From Escherichia phage N4, in the sequence record NC_008720.1: a stretch of 64,000 bases of DNA; one strand, written 5' to 3'. The position numbers and the translations under genes are program-made. This document shows, piece after piece, positions 15,460 to 25,400 of this stretch. Each line of letters begins with the position of its first letter. The stretch's first letter is position 1. The notes below the pieces were generated by a model. It saw only the letters and a list, made by a program, of their open reading frames with translations. It was not told the origin of the DNA and made no database searches.

Positions 15460-17985
15460 ATGCAAGTAGCTGACTCTACTGAACTGACCACATCAGCAAC
15501 GTTGGGTGCTCAAGATGCTATGGCCTTCGGTATTTCTGAAGACCCAGCATTCTTCCAAATACTCAGTGCTAACCTCTATTCTAATCAGAAACTGGCAATG
15601 GTACGTGAGACATTGTGCAATAGCTGGGATGCTCATATTGAGGGGAATAAAACAGATATTCCTATCCATGTAACCATTGATAAAGATGGTTTCCTTATCT
15701 TCCGTGACTATGGTTCTGGTATTCCTAAAGATAAGATTCAAGAGGTCTATGGGGTATATGGTGCATCTACCAAGAAAGCTAATACTGCTTCCACTGGTGG
15801 CTTTGGCTTAGGATGTAAATCCCCTATGGCCTATACAGACAGTTTTACTGTCACATCTATGTGTGACGGAACCAAGACTGTCTATCACATTGCTAAATCT
15901 TCTGTTGAGACTAACGGTAAACCAGGGATTATTCCTATCGTTAGCGTACCTACTGAAGAATCTGGGCTTGAAGTTAAAATTCAGCTTCAGTCAGAAGATA
16001 TTTTAGAAATTGATTCATATATTCGAGCCATTGTATTACATGGTGAGATTAAATGTATTTACTGCAATCAGTATACAGGACCAAATACAGTAGAATTACT
16101 GCCTGTACTGGGTATGTCTTTTGAACCAGGTAGCTATAACCTAGACCATAGCACATGGCATAAATATTACATGGGCGGTCATTCAATATTTATCCGTTAT
16201 GGTAATGTTATGTATCCTGCTTTGGATACTCCTGCTACGCATGAAGCATTAAAACTGGTTAAACAGTTTATGCAGGTTATTAACTGTAGCCGTATCGTTG
16301 TTCAAGCTGCTCCATCATCACTAGCTGTAGCACCTAGCCGTGAAACATTGTCATCTCAAAAAATGACCGAAGACGGTATCGTAAATTTGGCTGTAGCTTT
16401 AGTAGATAAAATGGAAGCAGATATTAAAGCCCGTCTTCCAAATGCTATTGAGTATATTGGGAAAGCTATTAAAGAATATAGCCCTCACCGTTTTGAGGTA
16501 AATAGTTATTTGCCTTACACCAATTTAGTGCCTGATGTTATTGTCAGTCGTTATATGTCTTCTACTTTATTCAGTAAGCAATATGCTCACCTGTGTAAGA
16601 AATGGGGAAATATGGAGATTGACCGTCAACTTGAACATCCTGCACTGGCTCATTTCTCTGGTTCTCAAAAAGCCCATCTCCGTAAGCATTTAAAGAGGGC
16701 TAAGGATTTACGTAATTACAGGGAATTAACTAAAGTATTTACTGATATGGCTATTAAGCCAATGTTCAAAACCTTTGCTAAATTGGGGATTACTAAAGGT
16801 ATTTCCCTATTTCATTATCAATATGGTGTTGAACTGTGGCGTAATAATATTGTTAATAGTGTCCGTAGAATACACTCATTAAACTTCATGACTTATAGTT
16901 CTAAGAAGTGCCGTGTATTTGTTACCCCACGTATTACCAATATTGAAGATAGTCTGGCTGGGTATCCCGAATTTGATAATCTTTCTACTGAGACACTGGT
17001 GAAATATAACTCAATCATTGTCAAAGTTGGAACCAAGAAAGGTGAAGCAGAAGCTATGGCCAATCTGCTCACTAAAGCAGGATACGAAGTCATTAATATG
17101 GCTGAATATCATGAATGGGATTGTATAGCTCGTAGACGTAAAGAGGAACAAGAGGCTAAATTAGCCATTTCCAAATTACAAGCTAAGAAAGCTACTAATA
17201 AGAAAAAGGTTAGTCCTAACCGTCTTATTAGTATGAATATCCTTGAAATACCAAAAGAGCATCGTAGCTATTCGAGTGAGGTATGCGGTTCTCACTACGC
17301 TTCCCGTTCTCATGACCGAATGGTTGATGTAGATACTCCCCAGTATTACATCATGCAGGAAGATATTAATAACTACACAGGAAGACTTGGTATTCTTTCT
17401 ATGTGGCAATTAACTCCTGCTACCATTAAAGATGTGACTGTTGTTTGTCGTAATAAAATTGAACGTAATAAAGCTATTAAGCGAGGTGCTGTTCATTTGG
17501 ATGAATGGACTGCTCCGTATATTGCTTCGGTTCTTACATCCAAACAATTCATTAAGTATGTCACTAAAGAACGTCAGAAAACGTTAAGTGATATTGGTAT
17601 TTACTCCAAACACCTCAGATTACTGAGAGAACTGGATATTACATACGCCCCATTGAAAGGTCTGCGTTATGACCCAGAACTGGAGAATGCTTATCTCTTC
17701 TTACAAAGTAGTAGCTATCCTAAGCTACGTGCATTGTTAGGGAAGGGGCTGATTACTGAAGAACAGTATCACTTCCTTAGTGATGTTGATGTGCATTGCA
17801 AGACTTTCAGTAAGTACTCGGAACTTCGTAGGATACCGAAGATGTTCCTCGATATTGATGCTGGGGGTTATATGTTGGCTGCATGTACTGTAGACACATT
17901 GCTTCGTGAAATCGAACAATTCCCTGAATCAATCCCTGCAATCAAACTGCTTGTAAAAGCTGCTCTTAAACGGAATACAGACTGA
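15460..17985 (+). CDS. rIIA: rIIA-like protein with GHKL-type ATPase domain (841 aa)
   Basis: N-box LCNSWDAH, G1 box DYGSGIP, G2 box GGFGLGCKS near the N-terminus; size consistent with phage rIIA. Confidence 0.65.
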   Translation: MQVADSTELTTSATLGAQDAMAFGISEDPAFFQILSANLYSNQKLAMVRETLCNSWDAHIEGNKTDIPIHVTIDKDGFLIFRDYGSGIPKDKIQEVYGVYGASTKKANTASTGGFGLGCKSPMAYTDSFTVTSMCDGTKTVYHIAKSSVETNGKPGIIPIVSVPTEESGLEVKIQLQSEDILEIDSYIRAIVLHGEIKCIYCNQYTGPNTVELLPVLGMSFEPGSYNLDHSTWHKYYMGGHSIFIRYGNVMYPALDTPATHEALKLVKQFMQVINCSRIVVQAAPSSLAVAPSRETLSSQKMTEDGIVNLAVALVDKMEADIKARLPNAIEYIGKAIKEYSPHRFEVNSYLPYTNLVPDVIVSRYMSSTLFSKQYAHLCKKWGNMEIDRQLEHPALAHFSGSQKAHLRKHLKRAKDLRNYRELTKVFTDMAIKPMFKTFAKLGITKGISLFHYQYGVELWRNNIVNSVRRIHSLNFMTYSSKKCRVFVTPRITNIEDSLAGYPEFDNLSTETLVKYNSIIVKVGTKKGEAEAMANLLTKAGYEVINMAEYHEWDCIARRRKEEQEAKLAISKLQAKKATNKKKVSPNRLISMNILEIPKEHRSYSSEVCGSHYASRSHDRMVDVDTPQYYIMQEDINNYTGRLGILSMWQLTPATIKDVTVVCRNKIERNKAIKRGAVHLDEWTAPYIASVLTSKQFIKYVTKERQKTLSDIGIYSKHLRLLRELDITYAPLKGLRYDPELENAYLFLQSSSYPKLRALLGKGLITEEQYHFLSDVDVHCKTFSKYSELRRIPKMFLDIDAGGYMLAACTVDTLLREIEQFPESIPAIKLLVKAALKRNTD

Positions 17986-20075
17986 TGAAACGAAATTATC
18001 TCGCCATTATTGCCCTGTCAGTAGACAGCCGTAACCTCACCTTATGGCAACCAGATGGTTCTACTATGGTCATCCCCCAAGGGGATGCCCGTGTACCTCG
18101 TATTGTTGCTGAAGCAAAAGAAAAGAATCTTACCCCAGGTAAGATTATTGAAGTGGATGTCACTATCGAAGCTCAGATTCGTCAAGAGTTTCTAGACGCT
18201 GAACGTGATACAGGTGGCTTTGTTAAATTCTTCCGTATTACCAAGAAGAAGCTGCAAGAGTTCTTTTTGGGGGAAGAGGAAGAACAAGTCCCTCATGTAT
18301 CACCTGTAGAGTTAGGTGCTAAACCAACTGCTTTCAATGCTTTTATTGCTAATGCTGTAGGCAAAACTCTTGCTGTACAACATGCATCATTAAAAGCACC
18401 TGAACCAGAAATGACAGTTACTCATGAGCGTTTTTACGGTAACTATGCTGTATGGATTACAGATGTAGACCCACGGAATCATCGTATTGAGGTTATTCAT
18501 GTTATCCGTGAAATCTCAGGAAGAACCAGTGAATATGTCAATAACCTGCTGGCTCAACCAACTCCATTCAAAGTGTTTGATTGGCTCACAGAGACTCAGG
18601 CTAAAGAATTTGTAAGACGTCTGAATAACACTCAGGGTGTTATCTCTGTCTATAACAAACTGGAAGACGGTATTCCTGCTAAGGTTGCCGTGAAAGCTAC
18701 AGAGCCAACCAATAAAGAAAAGCTGGAAGCTGCATCATCTAAGCTGAAAGCTATGGGTGCTGTCGCTACTGATGCTTACGAGTTTCATACTGACTTGAAT
18801 GAGAATGAAGAGACTATTGTAGCTGTAGTAAATGATAAGGTGGTTCCTGATGTTCAGAACCTACATCGTCATATCCGTCAATCTGCAAATTTGAAAGACT
18901 ATAAAGGCTTTACTAAGTTTCTTGAACGCCTGTCTACTGTAATTGATAAACGTCGTCACTCTGTTGAAGACCTGATGAAGTTTATGGAAAAAGGTGACCT
19001 GCCAATTGCAGATGATGGCTCCATTGTTATCTTCAAACGTCTGGAAAGCAAAGACAATCCTGAACATCTTAAAGATGTAATGGATGATGTATTTGTTGAT
19101 TGCCATTCTAAGAAGATTGAGCAATGCGTTGGTATGCGTGTAATGGTTAGAGAAAGCCTTGTAGACCAGAACCGTCGTAAAGACTGTTCTCATGGTTTGC
19201 ACGTAGCTTCTCTGCAATACATTCGTAATTTCTCAGGCAACGTAACCATTATTGGTAAAGTTGCTCCAGAGGATGTATTTGCAGTACCAGAATACGATGT
19301 TACTAAGATGCGTGTATCTGCTTATCACATCATTACCAAGCTACCTGACGCTATTCGTGACCATGTTAATAATGGCAATCCAATCTCCACCATTGAGGGT
19401 GGTACGGAAATTCTGAACATGGTTCTCAGTGGTAATCACCCTGAACCTTCTCGTCAGGTACTGGTTGGTGGTCATTATGGAACCAATCTGACTTATTCAG
19501 AACTCACCCGTAATTATCTGGATGATGTGGAAGACATCGTTATTCCAGATGAACCAGTAATTAAGAAAACTGCCTTGAATATGGAAGAGAGCTTTACGGC
19601 AACTAATCCTAAAGCCGAACCAGTGAAGGCAACGGATGTTAAACCTATTAAGAAGACTAAGATGGAAATTCTTAAAGACCTTTGGAACCAGTTCCTGAAA
19701 GCAGAGACTTCTAATGAAGCTATTACGCTGGCTGATGAAATCATTGCTGCTAAGGGCAAATGTAAGAAGTCATGGGCTTCTTTAGGCTTCAGTGGTGACA
19801 TGGTTCAGAAACTGATTGATGCTCGTGCTAATAAGCCTAAGCCAGAAAAAGCAGTCAAACAGGATAAAACTGTTGCACCTAAGAAAACTACAGTCACTCG
19901 TAGTCGGAATGCTGATGTTATTCGTAGTTATCTGAATGACAAAGGTATGTCTGATTACTGTAAAGCTCATGCCATTCACGATGTGAAACGTGCTGCTAAG
20001 AAGTCTTATGCTGCACTGGGTCTGACTCCTGAAGAATGCAGCCAAATTGATAAACTGAAGCATCATCTGAAGTAA
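17985..20075 (+). CDS. rIIB-like protein (696 aa)
   Basis: Immediately follows and is start/stop-coupled to the rIIA-like gene; assignment by gene order only. Confidence 0.4.
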   Translation: MKRNYLAIIALSVDSRNLTLWQPDGSTMVIPQGDARVPRIVAEAKEKNLTPGKIIEVDVTIEAQIRQEFLDAERDTGGFVKFFRITKKKLQEFFLGEEEEQVPHVSPVELGAKPTAFNAFIANAVGKTLAVQHASLKAPEPEMTVTHERFYGNYAVWITDVDPRNHRIEVIHVIREISGRTSEYVNNLLAQPTPFKVFDWLTETQAKEFVRRLNNTQGVISVYNKLEDGIPAKVAVKATEPTNKEKLEAASSKLKAMGAVATDAYEFHTDLNENEETIVAVVNDKVVPDVQNLHRHIRQSANLKDYKGFTKFLERLSTVIDKRRHSVEDLMKFMEKGDLPIADDGSIVIFKRLESKDNPEHLKDVMDDVFVDCHSKKIEQCVGMRVMVRESLVDQNRRKDCSHGLHVASLQYIRNFSGNVTIIGKVAPEDVFAVPEYDVTKMRVSAYHIITKLPDAIRDHVNNGNPISTIEGGTEILNMVLSGNHPEPSRQVLVGGHYGTNLTYSELTRNYLDDVEDIVIPDEPVIKKTALNMEESFTATNPKAEPVKATDVKPIKKTKMEILKDLWNQFLKAETSNEAITLADEIIAAKGKCKKSWASLGFSGDMVQKLIDARANKPKPEKAVKQDKTVAPKKTTVTRSRNADVIRSYLNDKGMSDYCKAHAIHDVKRAAKKSYAALGLTPEECSQIDKLKHHLK

Positions 20076-20142
20076 GTAGGTTAACTATTCAAGTAGCTCC
20101 AGTTGAAATATACTGGAGCTATCTTTGAAGAGGATACATACT

Positions 20143-20538
20143 ATGGCCAAAGTTTATCGTGCTAACCGTAAAGCCTATGATGACGATATTATTCGTATGA
20201 ATGCAGTCGGTTTATCATTGGGAACCATTGCTAAAACATTAGGTGTTCACCCCACTACAGTTACCTTACGATTACGCTCTCTTGGTATTGAACCAGCCGA
20301 CACACGTCGAACATTTATGGAGAACGTATTAGCACCATTACCTACTCACGTAGCTGATTGGTTATCGGAACAAGTAGGACCAAAGTATGAGATTCGACAA
20401 TACGTTCGAGACTTATTACTGGAAGCCTACAATAATCGTCATAATCATAAGGAAACTGCCCATGAACGATTCCTCAAAAGATACGTTGGTACAAACCCAG
20501 AACTGGTTTCTGAAGGCAGTACCCAACCCAACGAGTAA
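20143..20538 (+). CDS. Putative helix-turn-helix DNA-binding protein (131 aa)
   Basis: GLSLGTIAKTLGVHPTTVTLRLRSLG resembles an HTH; ATG at 20143 with GAGGAT RBS. Confidence 0.45.
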   Translation: MAKVYRANRKAYDDDIIRMNAVGLSLGTIAKTLGVHPTTVTLRLRSLGIEPADTRRTFMENVLAPLPTHVADWLSEQVGPKYEIRQYVRDLLLEAYNNRHNHKETAHERFLKRYVGTNPELVSEGSTQPNE

Positions 20539-20914
20539 AAACATTAGTACCCAGATTGGTTGCCATCTGGAAGAAGTAGCAGAAATGCTAGAAGCAATAT
20601 GCAGCGTCTATAAGGAAGACGATAAGAAAATAGCTTATCTGAGAGAAGCCATTGTTCATGTAGCAGACCTCATTAAACAAAATGGGGGTATTGCTGTGAA
20701 AGACCCAAATGATCTTTTAGATAGTATTGCTGACCAGATTGTTACAGCAACTGGCGTCGGTACTTTCTTGGGTATGAACGTACCTGGAGCACTCACTGAA
20801 GTGAACCGTTCTAATTATTCAAAATTTGAAGACGGTGAGCCTGTTTTCAATGAGAATAAGAAAGTAATGAAAGGTAAGGATTATACTCCGCCTGATTTAA
20901 CCCCATTCATTTAA
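20462..20914 (+). CDS. MazG-like nucleotide pyrophosphohydrolase (150 aa)
   Basis: HLEEVAEMLEA and EAIVHVADLI helices typical of the MazG/NTP-PPase fold; first in-frame ATG overlaps the upstream gene by 77 nt, so the start is uncertain. Confidence 0.55.
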   Translation: MNDSSKDTLVQTQNWFLKAVPNPTSKNISTQIGCHLEEVAEMLEAICSVYKEDDKKIAYLREAIVHVADLIKQNGGIAVKDPNDLLDSIADQIVTATGVGTFLGMNVPGALTEVNRSNYSKFEDGEPVFNENKKVMKGKDYTPPDLTPFI

Positions 20915-20918
20915 AAGA

Positions 20919-20942
20919 GCCGCCCATATAGGGCGGTTTTTG
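20919..20942 (+). terminator. Rho-independent terminator
   Basis: Stem GCCGCCC/GGGCGG, loop ATATA, then TTTTT. Confidence 0.7.
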
Positions 20943-20956
20943 TATCTGGAGAACTC

Positions 20957-22276
20957 ATGTATAAAAGTACTACTAAGCTGCCACTAAATCCTGGTCAAGA
21001 GGCAGCGGCAGAAGGTTTCTTCGACTTTCTGCTCGACCCCAATGCTTCTGAACTTCGTATTAGTGGACCTGGTGGTACAGGCAAGACATTTACAATGGCT
21101 CATATGATTGACGAGATTATGCCTCGTTATCATGAGACATGCAGTCTGATGGGAATCCCTGCTCTCTATAACGAAGTTATTATGACTGCTACTACTAATA
21201 AGGCAGCAGAAGTATTAGCCCGTGCAACAGGACGTCCTACGTCTACCTATCATTCCTTTCAAGGTCTGACAGTACGGAATAACCTGAAGACTGGAGAAGC
21301 AGACCTGATTCCATCTAAGTCCTTCAGTATCAAAAAGAATAAGGTCATCTTTATTGATGAAGCATCAATGATTGACCGTAAACTGAAGAAGTTTATTAAC
21401 GAAGGTACTCACCAAAGTAAGATTGTTTACTTGGGTGATAAATGCCAATTGTTGCCTGTAAAGGAAACTTCTTCCCCTGTCTACAATGACAGTAGCATTA
21501 AAGAGTTTATGCTGACCCAGCAGATGCGTACTGATGTCCCTGAACTCCATGCACTGCATGAACAGCTTCGTGGAACCATTGAAGGTAAGCACGGATTCCT
21601 GCCTATTAAAGCAGTTCCGGGTATTATCGACTGGATTGAAGATGGTGATGAAATGAGAAAAGAAGTCGAGGGTCATTTCATGACTAAGACTGACACTCGT
21701 ATTGTTGCCTACACCAACCAACAGGTTGTTAACTATAACACCTTCATTCGAGCCATGAATGGATTCCACGGGGAGTTCTGTATTGGTGAAGAGTTAGTAA
21801 GTAACTCTGCTATTCAGATTGGTGCTGGTGACCGCCTCAGTATTGAACAGGAATGCCAAATTGTTGACCAGGATTCTGCTACTCGTAAGATTCTGATTGA
21901 TTCCTCTGGTATCGAATTAGAAGTACGTGATTGCACTCTGGATACTGGTTATGGTGGTGTCTTTGAAGGTATCCCTATTCCGGTAGATATGGATTATTTC
22001 ATTCGTTTGCAAAAGTACTATGCACACCAAAAGAACTGGGAACGTCATTTCTATTTGAAAGAAACATTCCCTGAACTTCGGGCATTACATGCTTCTACTG
22101 TGCATAAGTCGCAAGGTTCTACCTACGACACCATCTTTATTGATGCTACTGATTTATCTACTTGCCGTCAGCCTGATGTAGTAGCACGTCTGCTTTATGT
22201 AGCAGTATCTCGTGCTCGTCATCGTGTTGTGTTCTATGGCTCTTTGGCAGAGAAATTTGGTGGTCTGGTTCGCTAA
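20957..22276 (+). CDS. Dda/RecD-like superfamily 1 DNA helicase (439 aa)
   Basis: Walker A GPGGTGKTF, Walker B IFIDEASM, C-terminal VHKSQGSTYD motif. Confidence 0.8.
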   Translation: MYKSTTKLPLNPGQEAAAEGFFDFLLDPNASELRISGPGGTGKTFTMAHMIDEIMPRYHETCSLMGIPALYNEVIMTATTNKAAEVLARATGRPTSTYHSFQGLTVRNNLKTGEADLIPSKSFSIKKNKVIFIDEASMIDRKLKKFINEGTHQSKIVYLGDKCQLLPVKETSSPVYNDSSIKEFMLTQQMRTDVPELHALHEQLRGTIEGKHGFLPIKAVPGIIDWIEDGDEMRKEVEGHFMTKTDTRIVAYTNQQVVNYNTFIRAMNGFHGEFCIGEELVSNSAIQIGAGDRLSIEQECQIVDQDSATRKILIDSSGIELEVRDCTLDTGYGGVFEGIPIPVDMDYFIRLQKYYAHQKNWERHFYLKETFPELRALHASTVHKSQGSTYDTIFIDATDLSTCRQPDVVARLLYVAVSRARHRVVFYGSLAEKFGGLVR

Positions 22277-22285
22277 GGAGAACTT

Positions 22286-22813
22286 ATGCAACTGGGTGAA
22301 AAACAAATCCGTGAAATGACTAATAGTAGTGAACTGGTTCAGGAATTATTCTTAGCCGAGTTACGTCGGCTAGATAAAGTGCTGGATAGTATCATTACAC
22401 GTAATGGGGAAACATTCGCTGTATATAACTCAACAGGATTCCTGTATTTAGGGGAGTTCTATTCGAGTTCTCGTTCATCACAACAACCCCCTTCTGGTCA
22501 TCGTCTGGCTCTGGCTAATCACCTACTGGATGGTATGCGGGAGTATCTGGAACAAGCAGGTAAACTTCTGCTAGAAGTCCATATGGTAAATCAGATGGTC
22601 TTTCGTCTGGTTCAGGGCTGTAAGACTTATCAAGACGTTCGTGATGCATTGCCAGAATGCCTCATTGCTATGGATAAACAGGGTCATCTGAAATCCTTAC
22701 AGAGAACCAGAAAGGCAGCATTTACTCTGGATAATGATGCTATGGCTCTCCGTCAGTATGAGAAAATCTTGCCGATTATCGAATACTATGCGGGAACCCA
22801 TCTTATCTTTTGA
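22286..22813 (+). CDS. Hypothetical protein (175 aa)
   Basis: ORF track. Confidence 0.5.
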   Translation: MQLGEKQIREMTNSSELVQELFLAELRRLDKVLDSIITRNGETFAVYNSTGFLYLGEFYSSSRSSQQPPSGHRLALANHLLDGMREYLEQAGKLLLEVHMVNQMVFRLVQGCKTYQDVRDALPECLIAMDKQGHLKSLQRTRKAAFTLDNDAMALRQYEKILPIIEYYAGTHLIF

Positions 22814-22820
22814 GGTCTGT

Positions 22821-25400
22821 ATGCGTCACATTACATTCAACAATGAGGGTATCTACCCTATTGCTATCCTTGCTACAACGTTACGTAAGGATGATATTGT
22901 CAAAGCATACATGGAACCCTGGGATGTAGATAAAGATTCAGTAATGATTCTTGAACTTCATACAGCCCCAGGGAAAAAGAAAACTCCTGCTAAAGAGATG
23001 CAGGAGTTTATTACCCAAGAATTAGTGCCAGCATTCGAAGCAGCACAAACTCAGTATATCATCTGTGGTGATTCTGAATATTACAAACAGCTAACCAAAC
23101 AAGGTAAAGCTGATGCCAATATTGGCTATGTAATGGATTGTGCTTATGGGAACCAGAAAGTTATTTACGTTCCCAATTACAGACAAATCTTTTATGACCC
23201 AGATAAGGTAAAGACTAAGATTGCTTTATCCATGCAGGCTCTGATTGATTATGTCTCTGGTTCTTATGTTGAACCAGGAACTAAGATTATCCACTATGCT
23301 GATTATCCATTAACTCCAGAAGCTATATCTAAGTGGTTGGATAAGTTACTGGAGATGAATGTTCCATTAGCAGTAGATATAGAAACCTTCAGTCTGAAGC
23401 ATTATGACTGTGGTATAGGCACTATTACATTCTGTTGGAACAAGCACGAAGGGATAGCATTCCCTGTGGATTACGAACCAATTGAGGGAGCTACCGAAGC
23501 TCCTTATGGTAGACAGGTTCACAACATGCTTGTTCGCTCTATGCTCAGAGACTTTTTTATTAAGTATCTGAACAGGCAGATGTATCACAATATTGCCTTT
23601 GACGTATATGCACTCATTTACCAGTTATTTATGACAGACCTTCTGGATACGGAAGGATTGTTGCATGGCATGAGTATCATGCTAAGAAACTGGGATTGCA
23701 CTAAGTTAATTACCTATCTGGCTACTAATTCTTGTGCTGGTAATAAGCTAAGTCTTAAAGACCAAGCTCAGGAATATGCTGGTAACTATGCTCAGGAAGA
23801 AATCAATGACATTACCAGAATCCCATTAGCAGAGTTGTTGGAATACAACTTAGTGGATGGATTGTGTACCTGGTATGTCTATGAAAAGCATTGGGATACT
23901 CTAGTTAATGACCAACAGTTAGATGTTTATACAAACATCTTTAAACCTGCATGTGAAGATATTATTCAAATGCAGTTAACTGGGATGCCTATCAATATGA
24001 AGACAGTATTGGGGGTAGAAGAGGCATTAACCCAAGACTATAACAATGCGTTAAAAACAATTGCTGACAGTAAAGTAATCAAAGATTTTACCCGTCTTCT
24101 TAATGAAGAATGGGTAGAAAAACAGAACCAGATTCTGAAGAAGAAACGAGTAACTTTAGCTGATGCTAAAGAGCAGTTTAATCCAAACTCAGGTGTTCAA
24201 TTACAGAAGCTACTTTTTGAGTTTCTGGAGTTACCTGTACTGGGTCTGACTGCAAGTAAACTACCTGCTACTGGTAGTGGCATACTCAAGTCTTTGAAGA
24301 ACCATACCCAAGATACCAGTATTCTGGAAATTCTTGACGCTCTGATTGATTACAAAGCTGTAGATAAAATTCTGACAGCATTCATCCCAGCATTAAAAAA
24401 TGCCAGACAAGGACCAGATGGTTGGCATTATCTCTTTGGTAACCTGAACTTAGGTGGAACTGTATCAGGTCGTCTATCCAGTAGCGAACCAAACCTACAG
24501 AACCTACCTTCTGGTTCCAGGTATGCCAAGATAATTAAGAAATGCTTTGAAGCCCCTCCTGGATGGATATTCTGTGGGCTAGACTTTGCTTCTCTCGAAG
24601 ACCGTATATCTGCTTTAACAACCAAAGACCCTAATAAACTGAAGGTGTATACCGATGGTTACGATGGGCATAGTCTTCGTGCGTATGCTTACTTCGGTGA
24701 GATGATGCCTGACATTGAAGATACGGTAGAGTCTGTTAATTCTATTCAGGAGAAGTACAAAGCATATCGTCAGGATTCTAAAGCACCTACCTTTGCTCTT
24801 ACCTATCAGGGCACGTACATCACTTTGATGAAGAACTGTGGTTTCCCTGAACAGAAAGCTCGAATGGTTGAGGAACGTTATCATACACTTTATAAGGTAA
24901 GTGATGACTGGGTTCAGGCTAAACTAGACCAAGCTGCAAAAGATGGTTATGTAACCGTAGCATTTGGCCTGAGAGTCAGAACCCCCTTACTTCAACAAGT
25001 TATCCGTGGAACCAGTAAAACTCCTTATGAAGCTGAAGCTGAAGGACGTACTGCTGGTAATGCATTAGGCCAAAGTTGGTGTCTTCTGAATAACCGTGCT
25101 GGTTCAGAGTTCATGCGTAAGGTGCGGAATAGTAAGCATCGTCTTGATATTCGTCCAAGTACCCATATCCATGATGCTCAGTATTTCCTTATCCGTGATG
25201 ATATGGATGTTGTGATATATACCAATACTCATTTGGTGAAAGCAGTACAATGGCAAGACCATCCTGATATTGCCCATCCAGATGTTCATTTGGGTGGGGA
25301 ACTCTCCTTATTTTACCCAACGTGGGCTAACGAGATTGAAATTCCAAACTACGCTACGCCCGAACAAGTCCATGAAGCAATCCAAAAGGCATTTAAATGA
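22821..25400 (+). CDS. Family A DNA polymerase with 3'-5' exonuclease domain (859 aa)
   Basis: Exo I motif AVDIETFSL; SGRLSSSEPNLQNLP pol A motif; ATG at 22821 (track start 22734 overlaps the upstream gene). Confidence 0.9.
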   Translation: MRHITFNNEGIYPIAILATTLRKDDIVKAYMEPWDVDKDSVMILELHTAPGKKKTPAKEMQEFITQELVPAFEAAQTQYIICGDSEYYKQLTKQGKADANIGYVMDCAYGNQKVIYVPNYRQIFYDPDKVKTKIALSMQALIDYVSGSYVEPGTKIIHYADYPLTPEAISKWLDKLLEMNVPLAVDIETFSLKHYDCGIGTITFCWNKHEGIAFPVDYEPIEGATEAPYGRQVHNMLVRSMLRDFFIKYLNRQMYHNIAFDVYALIYQLFMTDLLDTEGLLHGMSIMLRNWDCTKLITYLATNSCAGNKLSLKDQAQEYAGNYAQEEINDITRIPLAELLEYNLVDGLCTWYVYEKHWDTLVNDQQLDVYTNIFKPACEDIIQMQLTGMPINMKTVLGVEEALTQDYNNALKTIADSKVIKDFTRLLNEEWVEKQNQILKKKRVTLADAKEQFNPNSGVQLQKLLFEFLELPVLGLTASKLPATGSGILKSLKNHTQDTSILEILDALIDYKAVDKILTAFIPALKNARQGPDGWHYLFGNLNLGGTVSGRLSSSEPNLQNLPSGSRYAKIIKKCFEAPPGWIFCGLDFASLEDRISALTTKDPNKLKVYTDGYDGHSLRAYAYFGEMMPDIEDTVESVNSIQEKYKAYRQDSKAPTFALTYQGTYITLMKNCGFPEQKARMVEERYHTLYKVSDDWVQAKLDQAAKDGYVTVAFGLRVRTPLLQQVIRGTSKTPYEAEAEGRTAGNALGQSWCLLNNRAGSEFMRKVRNSKHRLDIRPSTHIHDAQYFLIRDDMDVVIYTNTHLVKAVQWQDHPDIAHPDVHLGGELSLFYPTWANEIEIPNYATPEQVHEAIQKAFK

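Follow-up and report, generated by a model that had tools for sequence, protein, structure and literature searches.

The genes gp35 and gp36 of Escherichia phage N4 (sequence record NC_008720.1, of which a 64,000-nucleotide (nt) stretch, here called the window, was analysed) share 77 nt, with the gp36 frame at +1 relative to gp35. Most probably, the pair gives two proteins from a bicistronic unit in which these 77 nt are dual-coding, gp36 is initiated independently at the ATG at 20462, and the overlap arose from an extension of gp35. gp35 encodes a helix-turn-helix (HTH) protein and gp36 a predicted all-alpha nucleoside triphosphate (NTP) pyrophosphohydrolase; the translation of 20462-20911 matches the entry 'gp36 [Escherichia phage N4]' at 100% identity. 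An earlier reading of the letters alone (the sequence-only reading) had placed the start of a MazG-like open reading frame (ORF) 77 nt inside an HTH ORF, which agrees with the coordinates of the two genes (20143-20538 and 20462-20914), and had left three alternatives: a substantial overlap, a non-canonical start codon, or an over-called ORF. The first of these is sustained by a conserved start, a conserved gp36 N-terminus and a gp35 frame that is kept open. Its remark that 20462 is the only in-frame ATG was mistaken: the frame, which opens at 20378, offers three ATGs (20387, 20462 and 20585) along with a TTG (20486).

Public N4 annotation already includes both genes and their overlap, several records assign gp36 to its superfamily, and no new kind of system is involved. 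The additions made here are the comparative argument for the start, the maintenance of an open gp35 frame, and the endonuclease-mediated un-overlapping of the genes in relatives. The public N4 genes and their Enquatrovirinae orthologues (G7C gp35/gp36, Jura, AL25 and 24-32N) represent the same locus, with identical sequence and coordinates in the case of N4, and the identical 77-nt overlap is annotated in the records of Jura, AL25, AlfredRasser, G7C and 24-32N. Unlike N4, some of its sister records carry a shortened gp36. The start-site question raised from the letters is a genuine annotation disagreement, and the overlap is not discussed in the public records or in the literature found.

The start was compared across 14 distinct Enquatrovirinae sequences (the N4, Moo19, KP8 and G7C groups and metagenomic contigs), all of which have an ATG at the homologous position despite a nucleotide divergence of about 35-40% around it. 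In N4, the Shine-Dalgarno-like sequence of gp36 (Table 1) pairs with the 3′ end of the 16S ribosomal RNA at a calculated -6.2 kcal/mol, on par with the sites of gp35 (-5.8) and gp37 (-6.4), while the corresponding duplex energies are -4.5 kcal/mol at 20387, -3.3 at 20585 and -0.9 at 20486; an energy of -5 kcal/mol is attained at about 11% of random window positions. Further, the N-terminus was compared across 39 gp36 relatives, of which 17 have no gp35 homologue, among them Vibrio, Rhizobium and Pseudomonas ZC03 phages. All 39 have the motif T-x-x-W-[FH]-x-x-A-x-P-x-P-T at 3-26 residues from their own start (3-14 in 38 of them), and the N4 codons for this motif lie at 20483-20532, inside gp35. 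The test proposed by the sequence-only reading, namely whether homologue alignment would put the domain start after 20538, therefore favours the overlap: the invariant W15, together with A19 and P23 (conserved in at least 90% of the relatives), is encoded 5′ of 20538, and the relatives without gp35 have the same N-terminal conservation. The predicted N-terminal sequence is (M)NDSSKDTLVQTQNWFLK, and the helix at amino acids (aa) 8-19, which is encoded in the overlap and conserved in the 39 relatives, carries W15. Judged by these comparisons, the ATG at 20462 is the sole candidate start compatible with homologue conservation, from which we infer that gp36 would be initiated there independently, through a Shine-Dalgarno sequence of its own that lies within gp35 codons.

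The gp35 frame within the overlap

gp35 matches phrog_6377 (E=1e-71) and gives weak HTH matches, and a fold search with it returned only generic HTH regulators (RcsB, DegU and MarR-type, E>0.2), with no family assignment. It occurs in 158 phage records, and those listed are all of N4-like phages (Schitoviridae). Outside the overlap, the ratio of non-synonymous to synonymous differences (pN/pS; pairwise Nei-Gojobori estimates) is 0.15 in gp35 and 0.21 in gp36; gp36 itself was matched in 336 phage records. By these comparisons, both ORFs are independently conserved protein-coding genes. The AlphaFold 2 model of gp35 has a core at aa 11-100 with a predicted local distance difference test (pLDDT) score of 80-92, a helix at aa 106-115 with a score of about 55, and a terminal stretch at aa 117-131 with a score below 50. 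The gp35 stop is the TAA at 20536-20538, with no earlier stop, and the gp35 product therefore includes the tail, which has the C-terminal sequence YVGTNPELVSEGSTQPNE.

From composition alone (41% GC), an alternative frame would stay open over 25 codons with a probability of about 0.2. When the synonymous codons of the observed gp36 N-termini were resampled, using four long N4 ORFs as the codon usage reference, the gp35 frame stayed open to its natural stop in 4.7% of the resamplings for N4 and in 0.4-16% for eight diverged relatives, values that are not simply multiplied, the sequences being phylogenetically related. Since most of the first 12 gp36 codons differ between the N4 and G7C groups, these groups provide at least two nearly independent trials. 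In particular, Pro21 of gp36 is encoded by CCC, CCG or CCA and never by CCT, which accounts for 57% of the Pro codons in the reference ORFs; synonymous turnover at gp36 codons 2, 4, 5, 17 and 24 likewise avoids the T-ending codon that would make a stop. The gp35 frame is open in every overlapping lineage; beyond the overlap it meets a stop about every 35 nt, and stops are also found within the stretch in two lineages where the overlap has been undone. For genomic context, the annotation of VEc25, a conspecific of N4 with 11 differences from it over 772 nt, has no other gene overlap longer than 38 nt in its first 50 kb. The gp35 frame appears to be kept open by selection, across lineages that are not independent, and the suggestion that gp35 was over-called runs against a frame that stays stop-free contrary to expectation.

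The two proteins appear to divide the 77 nt between them. For the initial 36 nt that they share, pN/pS amounts to 0.49 when read as gp35 and 0.67 when read as gp36, as against 1.33 and 0.27, respectively, for the last 39 nt; such estimates are biased in overlapping frames because the synonymous sites of one frame are the non-synonymous sites of the other. The direction of the split agrees with the protein alignments, where gp35 aa 107-116 keep the pattern H-x-[RK]-[FY]-[LI]-[KR]-x-Y-x-G, aa 117-131 are variable and rich in S, T, E and P, and the entropy of gp36 falls from 1.67 bits at aa 1-10 to 0.19-0.29 bits at aa 21-40, its most conserved block. As read from these alignments, the first ~36 nt are probably shaped more by gp35, leaving the first ~12 residues of gp36 free to vary. 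The last ~41 nt are probably shaped by helix 1 and the following loop of gp36, and here the distal tail of gp35 would be a disordered passenger, nearly free in sequence but with its frame still open.

Probable extension and later resolution of the overlap

In two relatives, the overlap has been resolved by the insertion of an endonuclease gene. Mimir124 (Gamaleyavirus) and Shigella phage pSb-1 carry a 159-aa HNH_3 gene (PF13392; E=5e-21 and 8e-16) inside the former overlap, flanked by a duplicated overlap segment of which each copy keeps only one of the two frames. In pSb-1, the original start of gp36 has stayed where it was, along with the first 12 codons, and shares its frame with the endonuclease ORF; gp35 107-118 (HDKFIRLYAGKN) are still read from those nucleotides and form the end of gp35, and the second copy of the segment, 3′ of the endonuclease, gives gp36 a new start and a full N-terminus. 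In Mimir124, the nucleotides of the upstream copy have diverged and its ATG is lost, with HIRYLRAYGG still encoded, and the downstream copy encodes MSNSLNDTLENTRQWF... and has two stops in the former gp35 frame. Each frame has therefore been kept where it is needed and has decayed where it is not. The sequence pattern of gp35 aa 107-116 given above is retained in both phages, although these residues are encoded there outside any overlap with gp36. Residues ~107-116 of gp35 appear to matter, and residues 119-131 are dispensable in Mimir124 and pSb-1. Free-standing HNH homing endonuclease genes of the T4 mob/seg type sit between or within conserved phage genes; the Mimir124 and pSb-1 gene resembles them and is not found in the N4 window itself.

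These relatives bear on a different account of the gp35 tail, according to which the overlap is translated and the entire tail (aa 107-131) is a functionless read-through passenger, tolerated after the loss of an ancestral stop. Relatives with a short gp35 manage without a tail, the extensions in Pokken, HN01 and Axy13 are unlike in both length and sequence, aa 119-131 are lost in Mimir124 and pSb-1, and the distal tail is predicted to be disordered, with the elevated pN/pS of the gp35 frame in the 3′ half. However, stop-creating synonymous codons are avoided along all 77 nt, and aa 107-116 are kept with diverged nucleotides in Mimir124, where the overlap is absent, and are shared with Achromobacter phages. 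We regard a wholly functionless tail as unlikely, even though its distal part may be little constrained.

Across more distant relatives, the gp35/gp36 junction ranges from a gap to very long overlaps (Table 1); the Enquatrovirinae have 77 nt of overlap, apart from one metagenomic group with 86 nt. The simplest and most likely reading of this distribution is that gp35 was repeatedly lengthened at its C-terminus, across the 5′ end of gp36. An ancestral short gp35 of ~105-110 aa, ending at the gp36 start as it does in Erwinia and Pseudomonas N4-like phages, would have been extended in the N4 lineage; the opposite direction, by truncation in the short-gp35 lineages, is a less likely possibility. 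The genomes of Pokken, HN01 and Axy13 have a GC content of 55-57%, where alternative-frame stops are rarer. In the Axy13 record (gp35 homologue at 876-1463 of our sequence L015), gp36 is annotated only as a 49-aa fragment, and in the HN01 record (gp35 homologue at 918-1343 of L007) it begins at a later ATG and overlaps gp35 by 23 nt; the two cases may represent genuine overlaps of great length in GC-rich genomes or else problems of annotation or sequence.

Classical same-strand phage overlaps include the overlapping genes of phiX174 and lambda Rz/Rz1. The N4 overlap shares with them a dual reading in which mostly one frame is constrained at each position, and a younger frame that encodes a disordered, compositionally simple peptide. 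Unlike phiX174 and Rz/Rz1, it is a 25-codon terminal overlap and not a nested gene, it adds a tail to an existing protein and creates no new one, and it has been resolved again in two N4-like lineages by duplication around a homing endonuclease gene.

Other candidate starts for gp36

Under the account of independent initiation at 20462, ribosomes elongating gp35 would cross the gp36 initiation site, making some mutual interference likely. Termination-reinitiation coupling, although plausible in distant relatives whose junctions measure 4-17 nt, was considered for N4 and is implausible there, with the gp35 stop located 77 nt 3′ of the gp36 start. RNA folding of 20420-20545 was no better than that of shuffled sequence (z=0.06), giving neither a frameshift stimulator nor a structure that would hide the start.

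It is very unlikely that gp36 starts elsewhere within gp35, either at the TTG at 20486 (53-nt overlap) or at the ATG at 20387 (152-nt overlap, 175 aa), even though both codons are in frame within the open stretch. The TTG, which would be the non-canonical start allowed for by the sequence-only reading, is a CTG in 12 of the 14 distinct relatives and has no Shine-Dalgarno match. The upstream ATG has an AGGA 7 nt before it, with the duplex energy given above, and an ATG at -75 is also found in Moo19 and in two metagenomic relatives (L020 and L021). However, in both the KP8 group and the G7C group, stops situated between the positions equivalent to 20387 and 20462 close the gp36 frame 42-45 nt 5′ of the ATG, and a conserved start at 20387 is therefore excluded; moreover, the family profile begins to align at residue 3 of the 150-aa form and has no counterpart to the 25 additional aa. 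As a separate observation on N4, this ATG, 75 nt 5′ of the gp36 start, may give rise to a minor 175-aa isoform.

Even less probable is the absence of any real overlap, with gp36 starting at the ATG at 20585 (M42) to give 109 aa and the 150-aa call being an artefact. This start is annotated in VEc25, ST4, Moo19 and PhAPEC7, 109-aa versions are present in the protein databases (our P0041 and P0051), and the ATG is conserved in relatives. However, the shorter protein would lack the first two helices, the invariant W15, G33, H35, E37, E38 and E41, and the whole of the most conserved block; the Shine-Dalgarno match at 20585 is weak, and conservation in the gp36 frame 5′ of 20585 extends to phages without gp35. 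The over-called portion would in this case include E37, E38 and E41, which argues against gp36 having been called too long. Finally, a programmed +1 ribosomal frameshift to a gp35-gp36 fusion, for which the frames have the right relation and are both open over 160 nt, can be set aside as hardly credible: no conserved shift-prone motif was found among the invariant overlap columns of the 14 sequences, no stable RNA structure was predicted, gp36 occurs alone in many phages, and a fusion is impossible across a 2-nt gap, 4-17-nt junctions or an inserted endonuclease gene, where both proteins persist.

Several points weigh against independent initiation at 20462 and a selected gp35 tail, in addition to the bias of pN/pS in overlapping frames and the relatedness of the resampled sequences. 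In G7C-like phages, the Shine-Dalgarno pairing is less strong (-4.2 kcal/mol); the records of VEc25, ST4, Moo19 and PhAPEC7 begin gp36 at the equivalent of 20585, and that of KP8 begins it at a GTG; the gp35 model is only moderately confident at aa 101-116 (pLDDT ~55); and the literature search found no published ribosome profiling, N-terminal proteomics or transcript mapping of the gp35/gp36 locus.

The gp36 protein, its cassette and the locus

gp36 is a single domain of 150 aa, in contrast to the tandem-domain MazG of E. coli, and it matches the PHROG family phrog_671 'nucleotide pyrophosphohydrolase' (E=3.7e-33 over aa 3-150). N4 gp36 has no Pfam match, and an NCBIfam scan gave one spurious match to BlaR1. 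The canonical MazG family (PF03819) does not match gp36 at E<=0.1 and is not among the 25 most-matched families in the 39 relatives; PRA-PH (PF01503) is matched by 8 of them at E>=0.015 and MazG-like PF12643 by one at E=0.0098, all below the curated thresholds. Searches of the Protein Data Bank (PDB) sequences with gp36 and with the 39-sequence profile gave only matches at E>0.1. The AlphaFold model built with the 39 relatives has a pLDDT of 94.3 and a predicted template modelling score of 0.86, with helices at aa 8-19, 25-44, 51-74, 82-102 and 107-119, and is confident at the N-terminus (pLDDT 95 for both aa 11-20 and helix 8-19). The predicted fold is an all-alpha four/five-helix bundle, as in the superfamily. 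The residues that are invariant in the relatives include W15, G33, H35, E37, E38, E41, D91 and Q92, and D87 is conserved in at least 90%, so that gp36 has the EExxE motif of the superfamily (E37, E38 and E41) and a second acidic pair, D87/D91, on another helix. By sequence and predicted fold, gp36 is best filed in the all-alpha NTP pyrophosphohydrolase superfamily and not in canonical MazG. The designation 'MazG-like' holds at the level of this superfamily and fails at that of the Pfam MazG models, none of which matched. As a member of this superfamily, gp36 would hydrolyse (d)NTPs to (d)NMPs and PPi; the literature search found no biochemical data on N4 gp36. The proposal mentioned in the sequence-only reading, that phage MazG homologues hydrolyse alarmone or signalling nucleotides, draws no specific support from this locus, and the overlap has no bearing on it.

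The textbook second acidic motif of the superfamily is E-x-x-D. In gp36 it reads D-x-x-x-D-Q instead, and gp36 further differs from the superfamily in an additional conserved N-terminal helix and P-x-P-T loop. With Exiguobacterium Exig_1061 (PDB 3nl9) and Deinococcus DR2231, it shares the invariant EExxE, the acidic D87/D91 positions and a single domain of ~150 aa. An unexpected host was also encountered: a 151-aa protein (P0075) that is 68% identical to gp36 lies on a 2.76-Mb contig labelled Enterococcus faecium, which may reflect contamination or mis-assembly.

At 18962-22411, the window agrees in every base with an IMG/VR contig of 70,153 bp, the coordinates being equal. The best annotated DNA matches of the locus are N4-like phages of the genus Enquatrovirus (Jura, 99.1%). 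gp35 and gp36 are flanked by rIIB (17985-20075) and by gp37 (20957-22276), a Dda/RecD-like helicase with Pfam matches to AAA_30 and UvrD_C_2. The gp35-gp36 bicistronic unit would be bounded by the two hairpins listed in Table 1. The upstream one, equivalent in place to an annotated stem_loop in phage G7C, marks the upstream limit of the unit and is a candidate terminator, processing site or promoter element; for the downstream one, the records of phages Jura and AL25 give a terminator. A promoter scan gave no match above shuffled expectation. Further downstream, an HNH homing endonuclease gene in VEc25 (24757-25302) splits the DNA polymerase gene into two coding sequences, unlike the polymerase ORF of the N4 window (22734-25400), which is unbroken. 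It has been remarked, speculatively, that the pyrophosphohydrolase could supply energy to the helicase (PMC3915230); the literature search on gp35/gp36, the overlap and N4 expression here otherwise returned gene tables only.

Table 1. Features of the gp35-gp36 locus in window coordinates, and gp35/gp36 junctions in relatives
Feature	Position	Strand	Description
gp35	20143..20538	+	HTH protein, 131 aa; YP_950513.1
gp36	20462..20914	+	150 aa; predicted all-alpha NTP pyrophosphohydrolase (MazG/HisE/dimeric-dUTPase superfamily); YP_950514.1
Shine-Dalgarno-like AAGGAAA for gp36	20449..20455	+	within gp35 codons 103-105, 7-13 nt 5′ of the ATG
5′ part of overlap	20462..20497	+	gp35 aa 107-118 (HERFLKRYVGTN; predicted helix 106-115) and variable gp36 aa 1-12
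3′ part of overlap	20498..20538	+	most of gp36 helix 1 and conserved loop (QNWFLKAVPNPTSK), with disordered gp35 aa 119-131
Hypervariable cassette, probably exchanged by recombination	20588..20733	+	gp36 aa ~44-85, helix 3
Hairpin between rIIB and gp35	20094..20121	+	perfect 10-bp inverted repeat (TAGCTCCAGT / ACTGGAGCTA) with 8-nt loop, followed by TCTTTG
GC-rich hairpin and T-run	20920..20941	+	CCGCCC / GGGCGG; intrinsic terminator 3′ of gp36, downstream limit of the unit
HNH_3/AP2-like ORF	Mimir124 (L011) 719-1198; pSb-1 (L031) 1013-1489		at the gp35/gp36 junction
Metagenomic contigs L038/L039			gp35 107 aa; 2-nt gap to gp36
Pseudomonas phage Holyagarpour			gp35 105 aa; 4-nt overlap
Erwinia phage Ea9-2			gp35 106 aa; 8-nt overlap
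Five further metagenomic contigs			gp35 106-110 aa; 11-17-nt overlap
Stenotrophomonas phage Pokken			gp35 121 aa; 80-86-nt overlap
Burkholderia phage HN01			gp35 141 aa; 131-nt overlap
Achromobacter phage Axy13			gp35 195 aa; 269-nt overlap

Of the leads that the locus offers, the cassette in gp36 is the most interesting. Between N4 and AlfredRasser, which belong to the same species, the flanking DNA is 97-100% identical and the cassette only 30-47%. Across 115 close gp36 homologues, the flanks are 89-96% identical and the cassettes sort into at least 14 types that are 13-48% identical to one another, and cassette types are shared between genera. Within the cassette, hydrophobic residues occupy the heptad positions 57/60/64/67/71 throughout, and K72 never varies. 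This pattern suggests the recombinational exchange of a surface helix. A set of at least 14 sharply bounded alleles, traded between near-identical genomes and across genera with the hydrophobic core and K72 kept, would be expected if this surface were recognised or bound by a host defence protein. It is conceivable, but rather doubtful, that gp36 is a player in phage-host conflict and not a housekeeping enzyme of the deoxynucleotide pool, acting either as a nucleotide-hydrolysing anti-defence factor or as a defence trigger that escapes by cassette swaps.

The overlap result does not alter the knowledge of N4 biology, and its value lies mainly in annotation: several N4-like genomes, one of them of the same species as N4, call gp36 at an internal ATG and obtain proteins of 109-113 aa without the catalytic glutamates. 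For separating the two functions, changes checked in silico are T20463C, which turns the gp36 ATG into ACG and is silent in gp35, and C20467T, A20476T, G20512T and C20524T, which shorten gp35 by stops at codons 109, 112, 124 and 128, respectively, and are silent in gp36. The locus also offers a tidy small example of the evolution of a terminal overlap, with an extension, a partitioning of constraint, and a later resolution by duplication. If gp36 does have a role in conflict, the overlap of the gp35 tail with gp36 would tie an HTH regulator and an enzyme into a co-inherited, inseparable unit.

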